A stretch of 20,000 nt of DNA from Pseudogymnoascus verrucosus (Eukaryota). The DNA is taken from assembly GCA_001662655.1 (NCBI GenBank), contig KV460215.1; one strand, given 5' to 3'. Positions 1 to 8,280 of the stretch are shown in pieces; the first letter of the stretch is position 1; the number at the start of each line of letters is the position of its first letter. The notes under the pieces were generated by a model, which ran no database searches, had not been told where the DNA came from, and saw only the letters and a program-made list of their open reading frames with translations. The translations under genes and the position numbers were made by a program.

Positions 1-1922
1 TGGACGGGGCAGAGACGATTTCAGTCCAGATGCCGACTCCATGGCATCTTTCGGGTACACCTCTCTGCGGATGCGAAATCGCGCAAGAAGATTGCTGGAG
101 CACCTTTTCCATGCCGAGCCGTTGGAGTGCCTAGAGACTGTCATCGAAATTTGGCAGAAGGCCTCAACCGCGAGTAACACGCAGTACACTGCGGCTTTCC
201 ACCTGCTCCACGTCCTTGATGGTAGTAGACCCAAACATACCATACCGGCAATATTCGATGCTATATACAGCCGTACCAATCCGGGCGTCTTAGATGTATC
301 CCGAAAGTCCACATTGACGTCCACTTTACTTGACACGGAACTTGTCGTGTTCTTGGTTGATTATACCAGATCTGTGGAAGATGACGCTATGGACGAGATC
401 TGGACGGATTGCATGACATTTTTGAAGGATATTCTTGCGAATCCATTCCCACATCGTCAAATTCTACCTGAACTTCTTGAGTTTACCTCTGTCCTTGGGG
501 AGAAGGTGGATAATACCAACTTTGGGGAGCAGCGGAAAATGCGGAAGGACCTCGCAGTGAGTAGCACTGGCCTCTCCATCAACCATGCACATACTAATAT
601 TTATACAGGACCTATTCTTAAGACTTTTAACTGCAACCTTTACGACCAACCCAATAGGATATTCTATGAGTACGTCGCAGCAACCGCCCGCTGAAAAGCA
701 TTCCGAGGTCTCTTCTTCATCAAAATTAAAGCGCAGAGCCGAAGACGTCGTTGAGATCCTTGCCACCATTATTCCAAATCTACCCAAGATTTTGGTTGAG
801 CCCGAAAGAGTCTTGGTTGCGGCCAATACGATATCGACTAGTGTTATTGGGCCGACAATTCGGTCCAAAGCATACCCTGAAAACGTTTCAGTAAGCCTAT
901 TAACTTTGCTGTACCAACTCTCACGACTGGCAAACACCCAAAAAGTATGGAAGAAAGATTTAGGAGACGCATTCAACGACCCTCGATTCTTTGCGAATCC
1001 GCCAAGTCTGTACGAGAGCCACTGGATGGCCCTTATCCGCCAATGGGCAATCACTGACAAAGAGCGCATGCCTGAACTCCTTTCTCGCATTACTCCGCCC
1101 ACAACAGCCGGTATTGTGTTTGGGGTCGGTGCTACCAGTGCCCGCCTTGAAGCTGATCGAAAGACACAACTCAATCTTCGCCGCATTGCCACGCTTATTC
1201 TATCTGTCCCCGATGATACATTCGTATCGGTCCTCGCTGATATCAACGACAAAATTGTGGAGCTCCTCACTGCCACCACCACTTCGTCGCCCTCTTCAAC
1301 TACTCGAGCAGAGATATACATACTTCTGCGCGTTCTAGTCCTGAAGACCAGCCCAATTCATCTCGCATTTATGTGGCCAACAGTCAACGCCGAGCTAGAA
1401 GCTGCAATATCATCGGTGGTCGCGCCCGACCACAGTGGGCCGGCAGACACCTGGAACAATTTCAGTATCCTACAAGCATGTAAACTGCTCGACTTACTGC
1501 TGTGTATTGCCCCAGACGATTTCCAATTGCACGAGTGGCTGTTCATCACAGATACCATTGACGCCGTCTATCGACCTAGCTCGTCAGGCTATCAGCCAGC
1601 GGCATTGATTGACCAGCTAGCTGAGGAACTCGGCTCAGCTACGCTTTCCGGTGCATTTGAAGGCACAAGCGTGGCTCCTGAGGACACAAAAGATAAATCT
1701 ATGCGACGACCCCTTATTGGTCCTGGCCGGGTGGAGACACGAGGCGTTAACCTAGAGAGGAGGGATGAGTTAGTTGCGAAAGTGCTGAGGCCATTTTTCA
1801 GTCAACTCAGTATCTGGGCGTTTGAGACGGTGTACGAGATGGGAAGTATAGAGTGGGAGGAGTGTAGGAGGCAAGTATTGGATGATTTGTTTGATGAAAG
1901 CGCGGTTGTAAAGGCGTTGTAA
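1..1922 (+). CDS. DOP1: Dopey/DOP1 (DopA) family Golgi-endosome trafficking protein, C-terminal part (5'-truncated by window); exons <1..556 and 609..1922
   Basis: Frame is open from position 2. Phase-0 intron 557..608 (GTGAGT...TACTAAT...TACAG) joins ORF 41..694 to ORF 585..1922 (…RKDLA|DLFLRLL…). Dopey C-terminal motifs recognised: NPFPHRQILP, KVDNTNFGEQRKMRKDL, GVGATSARLEADRKTQLNLRRI, LQACKLLDLL, FQLHEWLFITDTIDAVY. Confidence 0.9.
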
Positions 1923-2086
1923 GGAAACCCCATGCCAGGAGAGCTTATTGGGACTTATATTACGTGTAAATAGATATTCAAGATACAGTTCAACAGCAAG
2001 TACTGTCACAAGCCCCAGCAACGAAATAATGCCCATTTGAACGTAATGGGTATCGATTTGCACTAAATAGCTCCCCAATATGATAT

Positions 2087-3353
2087 CTAATTAGCAACCG
2101 GTTTATCTTCCTCTTCCTCTTTCTCGGTTTCCTTCGTCTCCCCAGCCTTCGACTCCCCAGCCTTCGACTCCCCAGCCTTCGACTCCCCAGCCTTCGGGGG
2201 CCCTCCTAGAGGGGGTCCTCCCTTAGGCGGGCCTGGCGTGGCCTTCGGAGGACCTCCACTCTTAGGCGGCGGGGGTGGCGGCGTGTTGGTAGGTTTCGCA
2301 CTCGGCACGTAGTCTAACTCTCTGCTCTTTTGCTCGCCTTCCATAAAATAATCGTCCAGCTCTCCTCCTTTCGCTTGTACTGTTTTATCATGTCCGCGCC
2401 CGTGTTTCCTATGCGCCTTGTCTGACGAAGCTGGAGGCGGCGGAGCTGCTCCAGGCAACTGTGCGGGGATGAGGAACTCGGAAGGAGCGGTTGTGATAGG
2501 TGGGGCACCGGTGGCAGAGAGCGCAGCCGCCCTTGACTCCTCGTTCGAGAATCGTGCCGGCTCGCCATCGAAAAGCGTCGATCCCGGCTCGGCAACGGGC
2601 TCACTGAGCGGCGCGGGTATGCGGTGCAGCGCACCATATCCAAGTACACAGCCTAACGCACCCTCTCCGCCCCAGTCGCGGCTCGGTTGGATGGTGACTT
2701 CGCGCGTGACATCGTATTCGTTGTTGTACACGTACAGCCTGAGGGGCCGGCCGATGTGGTCTTCTACCAGCTCACCGAGGCCGGCTTCGCCGTGCAGGAT
2801 TCCCTCAGGGGTGCCGAGGATATAGTCGCTGTAGGGGAGGAGGCCGGCGAGGTCGGCGGGGGAGTTGGCGGGGACGTCGAGGATGTGCCAGATTGTTGCG
2901 ACGGTGGAGAGGGGCGCGTGTTGGAGGGATATGCCTAGGGTGGGGTTGTCCGAGGGGATGGGAACGTGCAAGGTGCGTGTTCGTTGGCCCTGGTAAGTAA
3001 TAACGCGTTAGTTGAGATTATGGGAGCTATGGATGAGGGAGGAGGGAGGTGTTACCTTTGCGCTCCAGAGTCCAAGAGTGACGGTGCCTCCAGCGCAGTT
3101 GCGGACTTCTTGGGCGAAGAGACTGGGATCTGAGTCCTCCTAATTCTTTATTAGAGATTGTCTGCTGAACTATTGAGTGAAACCATACAATCATGCGCCC
3201 ATTGATCCCAACTACAAAATCAAACCAAGGCTCAATTGGAAGGTCGGCATTCTTATTTCGTAGGACTTGGAAGCCAAATGCATTGTAGGTGGACGTCTGG
3301 GCTGGCGCGTCGGAATCGAGCCTTGATATGAAGCGGTTTAGGGCGTTAAACAT
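2087..3353 (-). CDS. GRH1: GRASP55/65-family Golgi reassembly stacking protein (Grh1); exons 3353..3189, 3139..3056, 2989..2087
   Basis: Introns 3140..3188 (GTATGG…CTAAT…TAG) and 2990..3055 (GTAACA…CTAAC…CAG) keep the frame. The N-terminus MFNALNRFISRL fits the Met-Phe amphipathic helix of fungal Grh1. GRASP PDZ-like motifs: GFQVL, IEPWFDFVVGING, WHILDVPANSPADLAGLLPYSDYILG, LYVYNNEYDVTREVTIQPSRDWGGEGALGCVLGYGALHRIP. Pro-rich C-terminal tail. Confidence 0.93.
2131..2196. repeat. 15-bp coding tandem repeat (CTCCCCAGCCTTCGA), ~4.4 copies, encoding (KAGES)3-KAGET in the Grh1 tail
   Basis: Units start at 2138, 2153, 2168 and 2183 (last one partial), with a degenerate unit at 2131. Confidence 0.95.
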
Positions 3354-3902
3354 CTTGATTCCAGCCGCATGCAATTGTATTATATAGAGATGTTGGGATT
3401 CAGCAATCTTTTGTCAGTGACTTTCAAGACGGAGACTTGTAGCTGGTGATGTTTATGGTTAATGGAGCTCTGGCCTCACTTGCAACAAGGTACGTACTGT
3501 ATCATGTTTCGTCATTGGCTAAATTTACATCTTCAAGGCTTGGCACGCAGCCTTGTGCCCACCACGCTAAATACCTCAGCCCTGTCAACTTGTCAAGAGG
3601 ATAATTTTTATATTTTACAAAGAAGCTGGGCAAGCAAATCGTGGAACTGCTTGGCAACAAACTGTGATGTATTTCACCGCTACGCTCTAATCTACTTACT
3701 TCAGCTACTACTCGCATCCACTTCTTTGACTTTTGCAGAGTCCCTCAAAATCGAAGTGCGGGGCTGCCACCGCCACAACTAGACTTGGCTTCACACGAAC
3801 CGACCCGTCGACATAACTGTGCGACAAATATTGGCAAGGGTTATTAAGACAGTGAGCTCCAAGAAATACTTTCTTACTACGGCCAGAGCCTCATTGGGTC
3901 TA

Positions 3903-4994
3903 ATGGCGTCCAACCCGCAGACGTTTCAATCGTTCGGCCGTCCGCTGGCGAACTCCTCCAACTTTTTTTCACAGAGGGACAACGAACATCAACTCTACGG
4001 TCTATTCTCTGATCTGAACCTCAACGGAGAACATCGCAAACAACCACTTTTTACACCGGCCCCAGTTGCTGTTGTTTCTTCTGAGGACATTGAACTGAAC
4101 GACGCACGATCTACCGAGAGAAAGCTCACAACAAAGCAACTTCGCAAGCAACGCGAAGCGGAACAGGCTGCGAAAACTCCGAAAAAACCCAAAACCTTAG
4201 CATCTAAAGCCAAGAAGCAAAACAGAATCAAAATCAGATTTGAGAGACGAAAGAGCCAAAAGGATAGACTGGACGCAATCAACCGCGACCCGAAACTGGT
4301 AGAGAAAAGGATACAAGCCTTGAAGGAGCTCCACGCATGTGCTCAAGATTTACACAACGCCACTGAAAACAAGGTCGCCCTTAAGCAGGCACTGCAAAAT
4401 CTCACCGAAGCATTAGCTTCACATACGGAGAAAACATCCGCGGAGTTATACGCCGAGCTCTGCCAGACCAATAATCAGAAGAGTGCTGAAGTATTAATCG
4501 GAAATACAAACGATACACAAAGTTCGGAGGAATCTTTCAGGAACTTTGTCGATAATTTGGAGAAGCCAGTTCTACCATCAGAGCCCGTTTCGACTTCGCG
4601 GGGCAAGAAAACTGCCAGGGTAAAGGAGTTGCCTGTCAACATCGCCCAGCCAACATTTAAGCTTCTCGCTCCATCGAGGGAGCAGAAGATCAGAAACGCC
4701 CACAACTGGAAAAGAGCCAAACCACTTATTATCGACCTCACAAAAGCGATCGAAAGAAGTGATATTAGCATCGCCAAGTCATACGCTGCAGCACGTGTTC
4801 CAATTAAGAACCTGGCTGACGGCTTAGAAAGAGATTTTGCCGACGTTATATCAGAAGTCATTCCGTCATTTACCAGAGACAGAATTGCGTATTTTGAACG
4901 ACCCTTCATTACCCTGAAGGAGACCAACCAAATATCACCCTCTAATACTCCCATTGCAACCAATGGCGGACTCGACCAATCAATGTCAGCCTGA
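3903..4994 (+). CDS. Hypothetical basic, Lys/Arg-rich, probably coiled-coil protein (363 aa from ATG 3903); candidate upstream cistron of TGS1
   Basis: Uninterrupted 364-codon frame. NLS-like stretch KKPKTLASKAKKQNRIKIRFERRKSQK and helical segments (EKRIQALKELHACAQDLHNATENKVALKQALQNLTEAL). No family recognised. The ORF-track GTG start at 3819 is unlikely in a eukaryote. Confidence 0.7.
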   Translation: MASNPQTFQSFGRPLANSSNFFSQRDNEHQLYGLFSDLNLNGEHRKQPLFTPAPVAVVSSEDIELNDARSTERKLTTKQLRKQREAEQAAKTPKKPKTLASKAKKQNRIKIRFERRKSQKDRLDAINRDPKLVEKRIQALKELHACAQDLHNATENKVALKQALQNLTEALASHTEKTSAELYAELCQTNNQKSAEVLIGNTNDTQSSEESFRNFVDNLEKPVLPSEPVSTSRGKKTARVKELPVNIAQPTFKLLAPSREQKIRNAHNWKRAKPLIIDLTKAIERSDISIAKSYAAARVPIKNLADGLERDFADVISEVIPSFTRDRIAYFERPFITLKETNQISPSNTPIATNGGLDQSMSA

Positions 4995-5724
4995 GATGGA
5001 TGATCTACAACAGAGCTACGTTGATGAATTTGGGCTTACAGATGAGTGCCATCACTATGAAAGTTTAGCAGAAGTGCCTTGGGACCTTCAGAAATATTGG
5101 CAGCAACGATACAGTATATTCTCATTATACGATGAGGGGGTATACATGACAGACGACTCATGGTTTGGGATAACTCCGGAGCCAGTTGCCGTCCAGGTAG
5201 CTTCAGACATGGCAGCCTCGATAGATCCTTCAAAAACTACAATAGTCGACATCTTTGCTGGCGCAGGGGGGAATTCTATTGCCTTCGCTCGGTCAGGACG
5301 CTGGGAAAAGGTCATTTCAATAGAGAAGGATCCTTCTGTGATTGCTTGCGCCAAAAATAACGCGGCAATCTACGGTGTTGCGGACAAGATTACTTGGATC
5401 AATGATGATTGCTTTGATTTTGTTTCCAAGGATGGGAATATTGATTTCAATACATCCACCATCTTCGCCAGCCCACCTTGGGGCGGCCCAGGCTATCGGG
5501 GCGACGAGATCTTCAATCTCGATACCATGCAGCCGTACTCCGCCAAGCAGATCCACGAGATGTGCAAGTCGACGGAGTGTGCCTTATTCTTGCCGAGGAC
5601 ATCCGATTTGCGACAGATTGCGAAACTTGCACCGGAAGGAGACAAGGTCGAGGTCGTCCAGTATTGCATGGAGGGTGCCAGCAAGGCTTTAGTTGCATAT
5701 ATACCAGCCACTCAGAGCAGCTAA
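4963..5724 (+). CDS. TGS1: Trimethylguanosine synthase (RNA cap guanine-N2 methyltransferase), intronless; start ATG 4963 (253 aa) or ATG 4996 (242 aa)
   Basis: KYWQQRYSIFSLYDEGVYMTDDSWFGITPEPVA, SAM-binding IVDIFAGAGGNSIAFA, CAKNNAAIYGV, catalytic FASPPWGGPGY and LFLPRTSDLRQ are all Tgs1 hallmarks. Confidence 0.95.
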   Translation: MADSTNQCQPEMDDLQQSYVDEFGLTDECHHYESLAEVPWDLQKYWQQRYSIFSLYDEGVYMTDDSWFGITPEPVAVQVASDMAASIDPSKTTIVDIFAGAGGNSIAFARSGRWEKVISIEKDPSVIACAKNNAAIYGVADKITWINDDCFDFVSKDGNIDFNTSTIFASPPWGGPGYRGDEIFNLDTMQPYSAKQIHEMCKSTECALFLPRTSDLRQIAKLAPEGDKVEVVQYCMEGASKALVAYIPATQSS

Positions 5725-5819
5725 ATTAATGAAAATGAACATGAAGTCAAAAATATGCACATATCAACCCCTCATGACAAGATAATTGCTTCAGGGGAAA
5801 CTTCCAGTAACGCTTAATT

Positions 5820-5932
5820 CTGGGGTAAGGGCGGGGAAGTGGGGTAAACGGTGCTGCTAAAGTGCCGGGTGGAGTTAGCCGATGTCACCGACACAGCCAA
5901 CTTTAATATAACTCCTCACTTGTAGTCTCCAC
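5820..5932. promoter_or_regulatory. Cluster of CreA/Cre1-type SYGGRG sites plus one XlnR-type site upstream of the SGNH esterase
   Basis: CTGGGG 5820, GCGGGG 5831, GTGGGG 5839, GTGGAG 5869, CTCCAC 5927. TTAGCCG 5875-5881 reads CGGCTAA on the minus strand. TATA-like TATAAG at 6154. Confidence 0.5.
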
Positions 5933-6256
5933 ACTGAGAACAACAGCCTGAATACGCAGCATGATCATCAATAGTTGTTCCTGTTCCGAACCCCTCAGTC
6001 CATATTGCGTTACATGCGGCTGCTAATAGGACACAATATAGCTACTTTTTCCTTTTATCCGAAGCCGTTGTTGGTTTAGTTAGCAGCGAAATGATAATCG
6101 TATGGCGAAATTAGCAGACGCCAGTGCTGACGCCTGTGCCATGCCATGGCCCATATAAGATGAAGCCTAGGCGCAATTGATCATGAAGGTGACCGTTAGC
6201 TATACTTCAGGGCACAGAAGAGATTCAAGAAGTTTTACGTAGTTTGAAAGCTCAAG

Positions 6257-7593
6257 ATGCGTTCGGCTTTGGCATACGTAGCGCTTGCGGCAACCTTCGT
6301 CCAGCAAGCTGTGACTGCGCCGACGGTTGGCCTTCCAGCACACGGAAGCAAAAATGTCCACTGGGTAGATACCTGGGCTACTATGCCACAACTTACAGAA
6401 GTTGGCAATCTTCCTCCTGCTCCATACGTATGTGTCTCGATATATAGCAGTCGTGCCTTCTAACCCCTTTTTAGACCCAACCTGACTCTGTTTTCGTTGA
6501 CTCGACCGTTCGCGCGACATTCCAAGTGTCAATCCCAGGGAAAACCGTCCGTCTCAGGTTCACGAATGTATTTGGCGCCACGGACTTGCCAATCGATGCT
6601 GTGACCATTGCTCTCCCTAATGGCCCAGCGGGCACCCGCGCGATTCATACCCAGACACTTCAGAAGGTCACATTCAGTGGCAAGACCTCGATCATAATTC
6701 CCAATGGTGCTCAAGTGGTCTCAGACCCAATTCACTTTGAGGTCAAGGCCAGGCAAGACGTTGCTGTCACCTATTACACGGCAGCCGGCCAAGCCGGCAA
6801 CAGCATCACCTCCCACCCAGGGAGTCGTGTCACGAGTTGGTACTCGCGTGGTAACCACGTCACCGCTGCCAACTTGACGGATGCTTCCGTTGCAAGCTCC
6901 GAGCATTGGTACTTCGTAAGTGCCCTGGAAGTCGACGACTCCCTCGGCAGCACCTTCGCCATCGTCGGCGACAGCATCACCGATGGCCGCGGCAGCACCA
7001 CCAACGGCAACAACCGCTGGGCCGATCAGCTCTCCCTTCGTCTCCTAAAAGACCGACGCACAGCGCATATCGGTATTGCCAACGAGGCAGCTGGCGGCAA
7101 CCGCGTGCTTCACGACGGCCTTGGACCTAACGCGCTTGGTCGTATCGACCGCGACGTGCTGGCGCAACCAAACGTCAAGTATGCTATGATTTATGAGGGC
7201 ATCAATGATATCGGGACAGGCAATTCCACGACCTCCGTCGCTGAGCAGCTCGAGACGTCAGACCGACTGATCTGGGCATACCAGCAGATGGCGGAGCGAA
7301 TCCACGCGGCAGGGATCAAGGTATTCATCGCCACTATCACGCCGTTCAACCACCCAGCCGACCAGTTCCAGCCTGTGTGGGACGCGGAGAGAGAGAAGAC
7401 GAGGCAGCGCGTGAACAAGTGGATCCGCGAGAATAAGGTGTTCGATGCGGTGCTGGACTTCGATAAGGTTGTCCGAGACCCAGAGCATCCGAATGTAATG
7501 CAGGTGCGGTATAACTTTGATGACTTCCTACATCTCGGTGTTGAGGGTTATCGCGCGTTGGCAGACTCTATCCCTCTCTCTATATTCTCGTAG
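6257..7593 (+). CDS. Secreted SGNH/GDSL-family esterase (XynE-like acyl/acetyl-hydrolase type), 429 aa; exons 6257..6427 and 6475..7593
   Basis: Signal peptide MRSALAYVALAATFVQQAVTA. Phase-0 intron 6428..6474 (GTATGT…TTCTAAC…TTAG). SGNH blocks: AIVGDSITDG (Ser), AAGGNRV (Gly), YEGINDIG (Asn), DFLH (Asp/His). Confidence 0.9.
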
Positions 7594-7688
7594 GGTTGAG
7601 GTTTAAAGGCGATAGTAAAGTTGTATTTCTTATATAGAGTGCACAGTCTCTCCAGCATGGTGGGATCAATATACTACAATAATATTTT

Positions 7689-7702
7689 GTGTGTGTGTGT
7701 GT
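7689..7702. repeat. (GT)7 microsatellite
   Basis: Directly visible, downstream of the SGNH gene. Confidence 0.85.
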
Positions 7703-7916
7703 CAAGCATATGTACCGATGAACTATGGACGAATGCCATTGCATGTCTCAAGCTCCATGCTTCAAGAAGCTTCTTGACGTCTTGTGAGAAAGGGCCCTTC
7801 TTTTCCCCGCAAACTCTGAGTTTTGCAAGGGCCTTCTCGGAAAGCCTAAATTTCACAAGGTACGAATGAAGCATAACAAGTCCGGCGAAAAGTTATATGA
7901 TGCAACATAGCCACAG

Positions 7917-7972
7917 CACAGCGTATTCGCATAAAAATGCGTACCCCGCATTTTCTATACGAGTACGCTGTG
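7917..7972. repeat. Imperfect inverted repeat (25/26-nt arms, 5-nt loop)
   Basis: CACAGCGTATTCGCATAAAAATGCG - TACCC - CGCATTTTCTATACGAGTACGCTGTG. 23 Watson-Crick pairs, one T.G wobble, one C.A mismatch, one bulged C. Confidence 0.9.
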
Positions 7973-8280
7973 GGTTAACACTAACATCGAATTCGATTGT
8001 CATATAAATTGCTCTGCCATATAAAGAAGGTGCTTTTATAGTACTGTGCTTCTCAACATATTACCCATGTCCGGACGCCCGTGACATGGCACTTGTTAAA
8101 GTTGCTACCCGGCTCTATCCCAAAAAGTAAGTGCTGGACTTGGCAGGAAGGCGATATTAGATTTGTTATGTAAAATAACTTATTCGAGAACAACTTAGTT
8201 CCGGAGAATAAAACTTCCATCGAGTTACGCTCGTTCTAGGCACTTGTGTAGCTCAAACAGGGTTTCCCATGGCGTCGACT

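Follow-up and report, generated by a model that had tools for sequence, protein, structure and literature searches.

The window analysed here is a stretch of 20,000 nucleotides from contig KV460215.1 of Pseudogymnoascus verrucosus, a cold-soil fungus. Its plus strand carries two overlapping reading frames in different phases, preceded by a short intron. The upstream frame, ORF1 (3903–4994), encodes 363 amino acids from ATG 3903 to the TGA at 4992–4994; apart from the first residue, the product has no methionine ahead of the point where TGS1 starts, is predicted to be mostly helical and belongs to an unannotated fungal family. The downstream frame (4963–5724) encodes a TGS1 protein of 253 amino acids.

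The TGS1 protein and the overlap of the two frames

The TGS1 protein matches the Methyltransf_15 family (PF09445) with 145.5 bits (gathering cut-off 22; E-value 1.4e-42), its residues 92–248 aligning to positions 2–163 of the 165-position profile. Residues D96, F98, G100, G102, N104, S170, P171, P172, W173, G174, G175 and P176, which we take to be the SAM-binding and cap-binding motifs, are invariant in a 15-sequence alignment. By these features of its sequence, the protein is predicted to be an RNA cap guanine-N2 methyltransferase. It is 77% identical in amino acid sequence to its counterpart at the related locus L001, with 44, 23 and 131 differences at codon positions 1, 2 and 3. Kelch-TGS1 and DUF3591-TGS1 models from Fusarium were considered as further cases of an upstream frame and rejected, TGS1 being N-terminal in them.

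The end of ORF1 (..NGGLDQSMSA*) and the start of TGS1 (MADSTNQCQPE) share 32 nucleotides, 4963–4994, on the plus strand in two frames, and a second in-frame TGS1 ATG follows at 4996 in a TGA-G-ATG junction. Coordinates, overlap and junction are as given in the original prediction. The geometry is shared by L001, where the TGS1 ATG lies at 5088 and the ORF1 TGA at 5114–5116, an overlap of 29 nucleotides. ATG 4963 is thus conserved (as 5088 in L001), whereas L001 has no counterpart of ATG 4996 and the NCBI model P0008 has Val in its place; the conserved TGS1 start is therefore 4963, not 4996. The start of ORF1 (ggtctaATGgc) and that of TGS1 at 4963 (caaccaATGgc) both have C at position -3, while 4996 (cctgagATGga) has G at -3 and at +4; the TGS1 start of L001 (cattcaATGac) has T at -3. 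The C at -3 of the ORF1 AUG was kept in all three DNAs examined. The original prediction contrasted a weak first start with a strong second one; its contexts at 3903 and 4996 are correct, but the contrast does not stand, since 4996 is not conserved and the ORF1 start is in no weaker a context than the conserved TGS1 start, whose -3 position is a pyrimidine in both loci.

Coding status and family of ORF1

ORF1 was originally taken for an orphan. Homology and profile searches identified 14 close homologs and 11 HMM matches, a further profile word search with the family alignment returned three matches, and the aligned set of 16 sequences spans 31–92% identity. ORF1 thus belongs to a family. The dN/dS ratio is 0.14 between the window and a second related locus, L002, in line with the value below 1 that had been proposed as a check. 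Between the window and L001, where the ORF1 proteins are 60% identical, 91, 74 and 217 differences fall at codon positions 1, 2 and 3, a strong third-position bias. By this pattern of substitution, ORF1 is a real, conserved coding sequence under purifying selection.

A Pfam search with ORF1 gave no family at or above its curated cut-off (best E-value 0.1), and a profile search of the PDB returned only designed helical proteins and SegB at E-values of 2e-4 or weaker, which is uninformative. The AF2 model is helical with a mean pLDDT of 65.5 and has cores above 85 at about residues 110–190 and 250–340; a basic stretch lies around residues 75–120. No Foldseek match to this model was obtained at an E-value of 0.001 or better, a wide VIA-align search gave generic helical bundles alone (Z at most 6.3), and the ESM Atlas search with ORF1 gave no usable match. 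A complex prediction for TGS1 with ORF1 residues 70–345, run without controls, scored 0.00 and is uninformative on binding. The N-terminal extensions of TGS1 in Helotiales were rejected as relatives of ORF1, with no hmmsearch match at an E-value of 1 or better and an hhalign probability of 0.4%.

Depletion of start codons between the two starts

The plus-strand ATGs of the region lie at 3667, 3903, 4337 and 4963, with nine more by 5160, and the ATG-free gaps 4337–4963 (626 nucleotides) and 3903–4337 (434 nucleotides) are the two longest in the 20-kb window. The scan agrees with the original prediction in finding a single ATG between the two starts, none from 3668 to 3902 (3670–3902 had been described as ATG-free) and about nine in the 200 or so nucleotides after 4963. 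The sole intervening ATG opens an out-of-frame mini-ORF of nine codons (4337–4366, MCSRFTQRH, context ccacgcATGtg) and arises from the Ala-Cys codons of an invariant LHACAQ motif.

The 1056-nucleotide ORF1 body has this one ATG, as compared to a mean of 9.7 in dinucleotide shuffles, none of 1000 of which had one or fewer. The original prediction had put the chance expectation at roughly 15. In shuffles of synonymous codons that preserve the protein the mean was 5.0, and 46 of 5000 had one or fewer. No in-frame Met was found in the 352 codons of the body (P ~0.006, from 1.4% Met in eight control frames of the window). The depletion is strand-specific, CAT occurring 18 times in the same stretch. 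The ORF1 body is thus depleted of ATG beyond chance.

Locus L001 is syntenic with the window (55–7809 in the window, 2–7596 in L001), and its ORF1 also has one ATG in 1083 nucleotides, where dinucleotide shuffles average 13.0 (none of 1000 with so few) and synonymous shuffles 4.0 (219 of 5000), with Met at none of 361 codons. Support from the synonymous shuffles is modest, with P ~0.009 for the window and ~0.044 for L001, two loci that are not independent. The sole ATG of L001 sits elsewhere, at 4342, and opens a 39-codon ORF. Of 351 codons, 217 have a different third position in the two loci, so that synonymous sites are saturated; the ATG depletion, whose conservation had been put forward as a check, has persisted despite this. 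Two out-of-frame ATGs, at 1111 and 1171 and opening eight codons each, were found in the first 451 nucleotides of ORF1 in L002, and the out-of-frame depletion is therefore not strict.

At the protein level, none of the 16 aligned family members has an internal Met upstream of where TGS1 begins, over 219–394 residues each. Of the 15 members that extend to this site, 14 have Asn-Gly or Asn-Asp there, and it is written AAT-G.., with an embedded ATG, in both DNAs that cover it (the window and L001; L002 stops short). Adjacency of ORF1 and TGS1, also proposed as a check, is conserved in Pseudogymnoascus-like genomes and in L001; the distant family members were compared as proteins.

An intron containing the ORF1 start codon

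A 69-nucleotide intron (GTGAGC...CTAAT...CAG) at 3852–3920 on the plus strand contains the ORF1 ATG and is alternatively spliced or retained. This intron is a new finding that was missed in the original prediction. We examined it in three sequencing runs (X2, X6 and X8), which come from three studies of a relative about 95% identical to the window; none is on record as RNA, but all splice the introns of neighbouring genes and were therefore judged to be RNA. The GT..AG joint 3851->3921 was present in all three, at depths of 74.1 (X2), 15.2 (X6) and 243.7 (X8), alongside an unspliced path over 3822–3950 at 97.7, about 17.8 (an inferred value) and 395.7, respectively. The spliced share in this relative is thus 0.43, 0.46 and 0.38, and the retained form is the majority, 54–62%. 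At other introns in the same runs, the drops in depth fitted no retained form. The NCBI model P0002 contains the same splice (..VIKT|TFQSF..).

The donor, the CTAAT and the CAG are conserved in L002 (69 nucleotides) and in L001 (67 nucleotides), and in L001 the flanking leader has diverged. CTRAY is the branch-site consensus, and each of the three introns examined has a single match to it by regular-expression search, in every case overlapping the ATG. In the window the match lies at 3900–3904, 17 nucleotides before the 3' splice site, with the A of ATG 3903 as its fourth letter, and it is presumably used as the branch point. In the spliced form of L001, a stop in the ORF1 frame three codons before the junction leaves no upstream ORF1 start. 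Intron retention is common in fungi, and retention here could be without function.

RNA contigs across the locus

In the three RNA runs covering the stretch, contigs extend without interruption from 3921 to at least 5737; none contains a joint linking the two ORFs, and hence there is no sign of the frame-fusing intron that the original prediction had named as contrary evidence. Contigs do not resolve single molecules, transcription start sites (TSSs), strand or local level, and an unbroken contig is not proof of a single transcript. A fourth run, X1, is identical to the window; its depth is absent over 3453–4537 and its contig bridges 4853–5177. Exon 1, the 5' leader of the ORF1-TGS1 unit, spans 3597–3851 on the plus strand, from the contig starts at 3597 (X2) or 3670 (X6), which are not evidence of a TSS, to the splice donor. 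A possible 3' end region of the transcript lies at 5725–5737 on the plus strand. The hint is weak: one X6 contig covers exactly 3921–5737 at a depth of 45.7 and the next begins at 5733 at a depth of 13.3, while the X2 and X8 contigs continue into the next gene. ORF1 and TGS1 appear to be carried by one transcript.

Proposed mechanism and alternatives

We consider it fairly probable that the locus is one transcription unit in which TGS1 is reached by scanning through the AUG-depleted ORF1, on two splice isoforms. The unit would be driven from a divergent promoter region near 3.45–3.65 kb. TGS1 would have no leader of its own and, because its AUG at 4963 lies within the end of ORF1, 40S subunits would have to scan about 1.2 kb from the cap, which is why selection would keep ORF1 free of Met and poor in out-of-frame AUGs. 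On the intron-retained isoform (about 55–60% in the relative), AUG 3903 would start ORF1 and subunits leaking past it would reach TGS1, making this mRNA bicistronic. On the spliced isoform (about 40%), the ORF1 AUG would be removed, the ORF1 body would serve as an almost AUG-free leader with one nine-codon uORF, and TGS1 would be the first long ORF. The ratio of ORF1 to TGS1 from one promoter would then be set by splicing or retention of the intron that bears the start codon. We infer that there is only one TSS, that both ORFs are translated and that either isoform contributes to TGS1.

The original prediction invoked leaky scanning alone. The ATG depletion and the C at -3 of the ORF1 AUG, conserved in the three DNAs examined, agree with it, as does the majority share of the retained form, and in green algae the mechanism has been shown experimentally, in the passages cited (PMC11892635). 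If the retained form were the only functional one, the spliced form would be a by-product. This we regard as unlikely: with about 40% of transcripts spliced, a large share of the mRNA lacks the ORF1 AUG, so that leaky scanning would not be the whole mechanism; splicing at 38–46% across three studies is no trace; the donor, CTAAT and acceptor have been kept in L001 despite the divergence of the surrounding leader; and TGS1 would be read best on the spliced form. A TSS for TGS1 inside the ORF1 coding region would instead yield two separate mRNAs, the contigs being overlapping transcripts. Contigs over two genes are indeed no proof of one transcript, and those of X2 and X8 enter the next gene too, but a poverty of Met and ATG confined to the sense strand over about 1.06 kb, and persisting across saturated divergence and in members of 31% identity, would go unexplained, and we consider two mRNAs improbable.

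Termination at TGA 4992 followed by reinitiation at 4996, or backwards at 4963, is very improbable in our estimation. Stop and start are one nucleotide apart in the window and the ORFs overlap by 29–32 nucleotides in both loci, which favours it; against it, 4996 is absent in L001, whose next in-frame ATG past the stop (5268) would cost TGS1 its conserved N-terminus, a scarcity of ATG over the full length of ORF1 is not predicted, and reinitiation after a frame of 363 codons is generally inefficient. Even less probable is a single fusion protein, made through an intron, as in NCBI models of 561–607 amino acids that join both proteins, or through a +1 frameshift at GCC-TGA-G, which in the window as in L001 would lead into the TGS1 frame. 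The three RNA runs show no joint over 3921–5737, no frameshift signal of a known type was identified, and a fused product would require no ATG depletion and no conserved internal start for TGS1. Four NCBI models from four species each place the junction differently and lose conserved residues of ORF1, TGS1 or both. From their sequences, these fused models look like artefacts, and their four invented junctions leave ORF1 as well as the true TGS1 wrongly annotated.

The scanning unit with two isoforms can be extended to a broader reading, which we hold to be rather unlikely: a cistron switch operated by splicing, a feedback loop between the spliceosome and TGS1, and an old overlapping ORF1-TGS1 gene convergent with moi/tgs1 of the fly. 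The sole branch-site motif of the intron, which shares its adenosine with the ORF1 AUG, would decide between a bicistronic mRNA and one dedicated to TGS1. TGS1 matures the snRNA caps needed for splicing, so that splicing of a weak intron could couple the status of the spliceosome to TGS1 synthesis. If this were true, the family of Met-free ORF1 proteins, by its conserved Asn-Gly/Asp (AAT-G) site, would point to an overlapping gene present in several fungal lineages.

Significance

To our knowledge, conserved mRNAs for two proteins are barely documented in ascomycete fungi, and the literature that we searched, on bicistronic TGS1 in fungi, trimethylguanosine in Pseudogymnoascus and Tgs1 uORFs in Neurospora or Aspergillus, contained no account of such a locus. 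As a clean natural experiment, the locus is suited to measuring how far ribosomes scan (about 1.2 kb) once selection has removed AUGs, and the intron bearing the start codon is proposed as a means by which splicing can share out the output of one promoter between two proteins. As in Drosophila, the second cistron would once more be TGS1, which prompts the questions of why this enzyme in particular is involved and whether ORF1 works with TGS1. Conserved Met-free ORFs beside a downstream gene provide a search handle for more such fungal genes.

Comparison with known systems

Alternative splicing in a leader can remove an upstream AUG or uORF, for example in Arabidopsis HCS1. As proposed here, splicing of a leader intron in HCS1 sets whether the upstream start is present and hence how often the downstream AUG is reached; unlike in HCS1, the upstream AUG of our locus opens a conserved protein of 363 amino acids and not a short regulatory uORF.

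Leaky scanning is described as widespread in Neurospora and Cryptococcus in the part of PMC7049704 cited here. Polycistronic transcripts spanning more than one gene have been reported from mushroom-forming fungi (Gordon et al., 2015; PMC4503453); by the portion of that report used here, those are read-through transcripts of basidiomycetes identified by long reads, unlike the present case.

Among green algae, mutations have established that scarce AUGs ahead of ORF2, together with weak contexts at ORF1, drive ORF2 translation, and an AUG added to ORF1 cuts ORF2 output, according to the sections cited (PMC11892635). The window resembles the bicistronic loci of Chlamydomonas and Auxenochlorella, as these are outlined in the cited extracts (PMC11892635, PMC7896298), in the paucity of start codons ahead of ORF2, in a less than optimal context at ORF1 and in the conservation of both ORFs. 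It differs in the length of ORF1 (363 codons), in the overlap in place of an inter-ORF spacer, and in the second, AUG-less isoform that is produced by splicing.

The closest likeness drawn in the original prediction was to Drosophila moi/tgs1 (CG31241), in which one mRNA carries Tgs1 as its second ORF; this agrees with the passages cited from PMC7605716, where the ORF before it codes for a small, unrelated nuclear protein. As in the fly, TGS1 lies downstream of an unrelated ORF in a proposed shared mRNA. As for the upstream protein, ORF1 matches no Pfam family at or above its cut-off. Unlike in moi/tgs1, the ORFs here overlap, each in its own frame, and the first of them has its start in an alternatively spliced intron. 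Given the difference in lineage, the likeness of the two arrangements would be convergent.

Overlapping reading frames and protein families

ORF1 extends on the plus strand from the ATG at 3903 to the TGA at 4992–4994 (363 codons), and TGS1 follows on the same strand in a second frame, with ATGs at 4963 and 4996 and its end at 5724, in agreement with the coordinates and ATG positions of the original prediction. TGS1 residues 92–248 match the Pfam family PF09445 (RNA cap guanine-N2 methyltransferase, E 1.4e-42), and an alignment of 15 sequences shows no variation at the SAM-binding and SPPWGGP positions. No Pfam family matched ORF1 at or above the family cut-off, and no informative match was identified among solved structures by sequence or fold; its AF2 model is helical (mean pLDDT 65.5) with two confident cores.

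An identical ORF1 sequence is contained in the hypothetical protein V499_04332 (P0002) from Pseudogymnoascus sp. VKM F-103. A word-based search identified 14 relatives with 58–100% identity, and 11 matches were obtained when 1.84 billion representatives were searched with a profile, among them stand-alone proteins of 318–459 aa that are 31–38% identical to ORF1, which is thus a member of a family and not the orphan originally proposed. The dN/dS ratio was 0.14 in comparison to the closely related locus L002 (89% amino acid identity), below one as anticipated, while differences to the more distant locus L001 were distributed as 91/74/217 over the three codon positions, with dS saturated. Judged by these comparisons, ORF1 is a genuine protein gene and is conserved. 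In the close relative (P0003), an extra A follows 4916 and is offset a few codons further on (KETNQI versus KEIHQI), and GGA is inserted in frame after 4499; ORF1 thereby returns to its frame, as would be expected of a coding sequence. Most stand-alone distant relatives end in an acidic ..DEEL tail, which is absent from the Pseudogymnoascus proteins. Seven distant relatives (P0016–P0021, P0032) continue for 20–60 aa beyond the C-terminus of the Pseudogymnoascus proteins; most of them have a conserved ..RPW.. motif and then a D/E-rich acidic tail ending in EEL.

Conservation of the arrangement and of the TGS1 start

Both the arrangement and the depletion of ATGs, which the original prediction proposed to seek in related genomes, are present in L001, a metagenome contig in which positions 2–7596 are collinear with 55–7809 of the window (identity 60% for ORF1 and 77% for TGS1). 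Here, 3692–4000 is free of ATGs, the ORF1 ATG is located at 4001, and a single ATG (4342, opening a 39-codon uORF) precedes the ATG at 5088, which aligns with window position 4963 and places the TGS1 start 29 nt ahead of the ORF1 stop. The ATG at 4996 has no counterpart in L001 and is replaced by Val in the NCBI model P0008; the conserved TGS1 start is thus 4963. Position -3 of this ATG is C in the window and T in L001, and that of the ORF1 AUG is C in all three DNAs (window, L001, L002), so that the suggested contrast between a weak first and a strong second start does not hold, the context at 4963 being no better.

None of the 16 aligned family members contains Met between residue 2 and the TGS1 start site (219–394 residues each). 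At the site itself, 14 of the 15 members that reach it have Asn and then Gly or Asp, and both DNAs that cover it have AAT-G.., with an embedded ATG. Should TGS1 overlap the seven longer distant relatives at their Asn-Asp site, a much longer stretch would be read in two frames in these relatives.

TGS1 models from other Leotiomycetes carry almost Met-free N-terminal extensions of 180–300 aa without homology to ORF1: Met occurs only at 1 and 33 before 278 in P0033 (Sclerotinia borealis), only at 1 before 184 in P0034 (a Logan ORF), and only at 1 before 298 in P0035 (Cadophora sp.). The next Met is located 32–46 aa ahead of the KYW motif, corresponding to the TGS1 start position in the window. 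Long leaders with few AUGs may extend more widely among the TGS1 genes of this class.

Depletion of ATGs within ORF1

Plus-strand ATGs are located at 3667, 3903, 4337 and 4963, with nine further ones by 5160, and the longest ATG gaps of the 20-kb window, 626 and 434 nt, both fall within ORF1. The ORF1 body contains one ATG in the window (1056 nt) and one in L001 (1083 nt), as compared to means of 9.7 and 13.0 in dinucleotide shuffles (0 of 1000 as low in either case) and of 5.0 and 4.0 in synonymous shuffles (46 and 219 of 5000 as low). In-frame Met is absent from all 352 and 361 codons, respectively; Met accounts for 1.4% in eight control frames of the window (P ~0.006 for none in 352 codons), where the sense-strand ATG density is 5–22 per kb. 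The same-strand counts of CAT are normal (18 and 17), and the depletion is thus strand-specific. The noted scarcity of ATGs between the two starts is therefore real and beyond chance, within the limit set by L002, where the initial 451 nt of ORF1 contain two out-of-frame ATGs, each starting an 8-codon mini-ORF.

RNA contigs across the locus

Contigs from four sequencing runs were mapped onto window positions 1500–8000. X1 bridges 4853–5177 and matches the window exactly wherever it has coverage. X2, X6 and X8, from three studies, are about 95% similar to the window; they skip canonical introns of the neighbouring genes, 2988->3055 and 3138->3188 (CT..AC ends) and the downstream gene's intron (GT..AG ends), with drops in depth at all of these that do not fit a retained form, and thus represent spliced RNA. 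In this relative's RNA, the downstream donor is 6427 in X2 and X8 (6427->6475) and 6400 in X6 (6400->6475). The contigs are unbroken from 3921 to 5737 in X6 and to 7637 in X2 and X8, with no joint between ORF1 and TGS1; hence, no intron fuses the two frames, and the fusing intron that would have spoken against the original prediction is absent. Four NCBI models that fuse ORF1 and TGS1 do so at four different places and are read as predictor artefacts.

Many other NCBI models place TGS1 N-terminally, joined to a downstream gene, which contributes Kelch repeats in Fusarium and its relatives and PF12157 in Eurotiomycetes and Dothideomycetes; these models (P0036–P0040, P0042, P0048–P0054) probably reflect additional merging of annotations around TGS1. 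In X2, the contig covering the divergent gene upstream (minus strand) stops at 3419 with an adapter-like loose end, and one X8 contig continues out of this gene through the intergenic stretch as far as 3851. The two divergent transcripts may therefore overlap, or a very short promoter region may serve both (3419 / 3436–3573).

An alternatively spliced intron containing the ORF1 start codon

A joint 3851->3921 with GT..AG ends, recovered in all three covering runs, removes 69 nt including the ATG at 3903. Depths of the spliced and unspliced paths were 74.1 and 97.7 in X2 (spliced share 0.43), 15.2 and about 17.8, the latter inferred from bin depths, in X6 (0.46), and 243.7 and 395.7 in X8 (0.38). 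The intron begins with GTGAGC, ends with CAG and contains a single match to the consensus CTRAY: CTAAT at 3900–3904, 17 nt ahead of the 3' splice site, whose fourth letter is the A of the ORF1 ATG. Donor, CTAAT-G and acceptor are conserved in the introns of L002 and L001, which measure 69 and 67 nt, respectively, whereas the leader flanking the intron has diverged in L001. Since the spliced ORF1 frame of L001 has a stop three codons upstream of the junction, its spliced mRNA cannot encode an N-terminally extended ORF1, and the frame that stays open upstream of it in the window (3783–3851) is thus probably incidental.

The same splice is predicted in P0002, which has an N-terminal extension from the ATG at 3455 and two further predicted introns. 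An X2 RNA contig covers 3597–3851 and has no joint there, at odds with the intron predicted at about 3586–3782.

A proposed model for expression of ORF1 and TGS1

We propose that one transcription unit gives rise to two isoforms. With the intron retained, the AUG at 3903 would start ORF1, and leaked subunits would scan the AUG-poor ORF1 body to the AUG at 4963. With the intron removed, the ORF1 start would be lost and the ORF1 body would serve as a leader of about 1.2 kb with one short uORF, making TGS1 the first long ORF. The splice ratio would then set the ratio of ORF1 to TGS1. Selection against AUGs in ORF1 would be explained by either route.

The main alternative is leaky scanning alone, with the splicing incidental. 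Transcription of TGS1 from its own internal promoter would leave the conserved sense-strand depletion unexplained. Termination-reinitiation likewise predicts no depletion, and fails in L001, which has no downstream AUG. A fusion protein could be made through an intron, which is contradicted by the RNA contigs, or through a +1 frameshift, which requires neither ATG depletion nor a conserved internal AUG.

Few AUGs before the second ORF, and inverse control by the ORF1 start, have been demonstrated experimentally in green algae (PMC11892635). In Neurospora and Cryptococcus, leaky scanning is described as widespread (PMC7049704), and Moi and Tgs1 are made from one mRNA in Drosophila (PMC7605716). 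No description of the ORF1-TGS1 arrangement was found in the literature searched. Two principles that are already known come together at the locus, bicistronic genes read by leaky scanning and the loss of an upstream AUG through splicing of the leader, in a configuration that is new.
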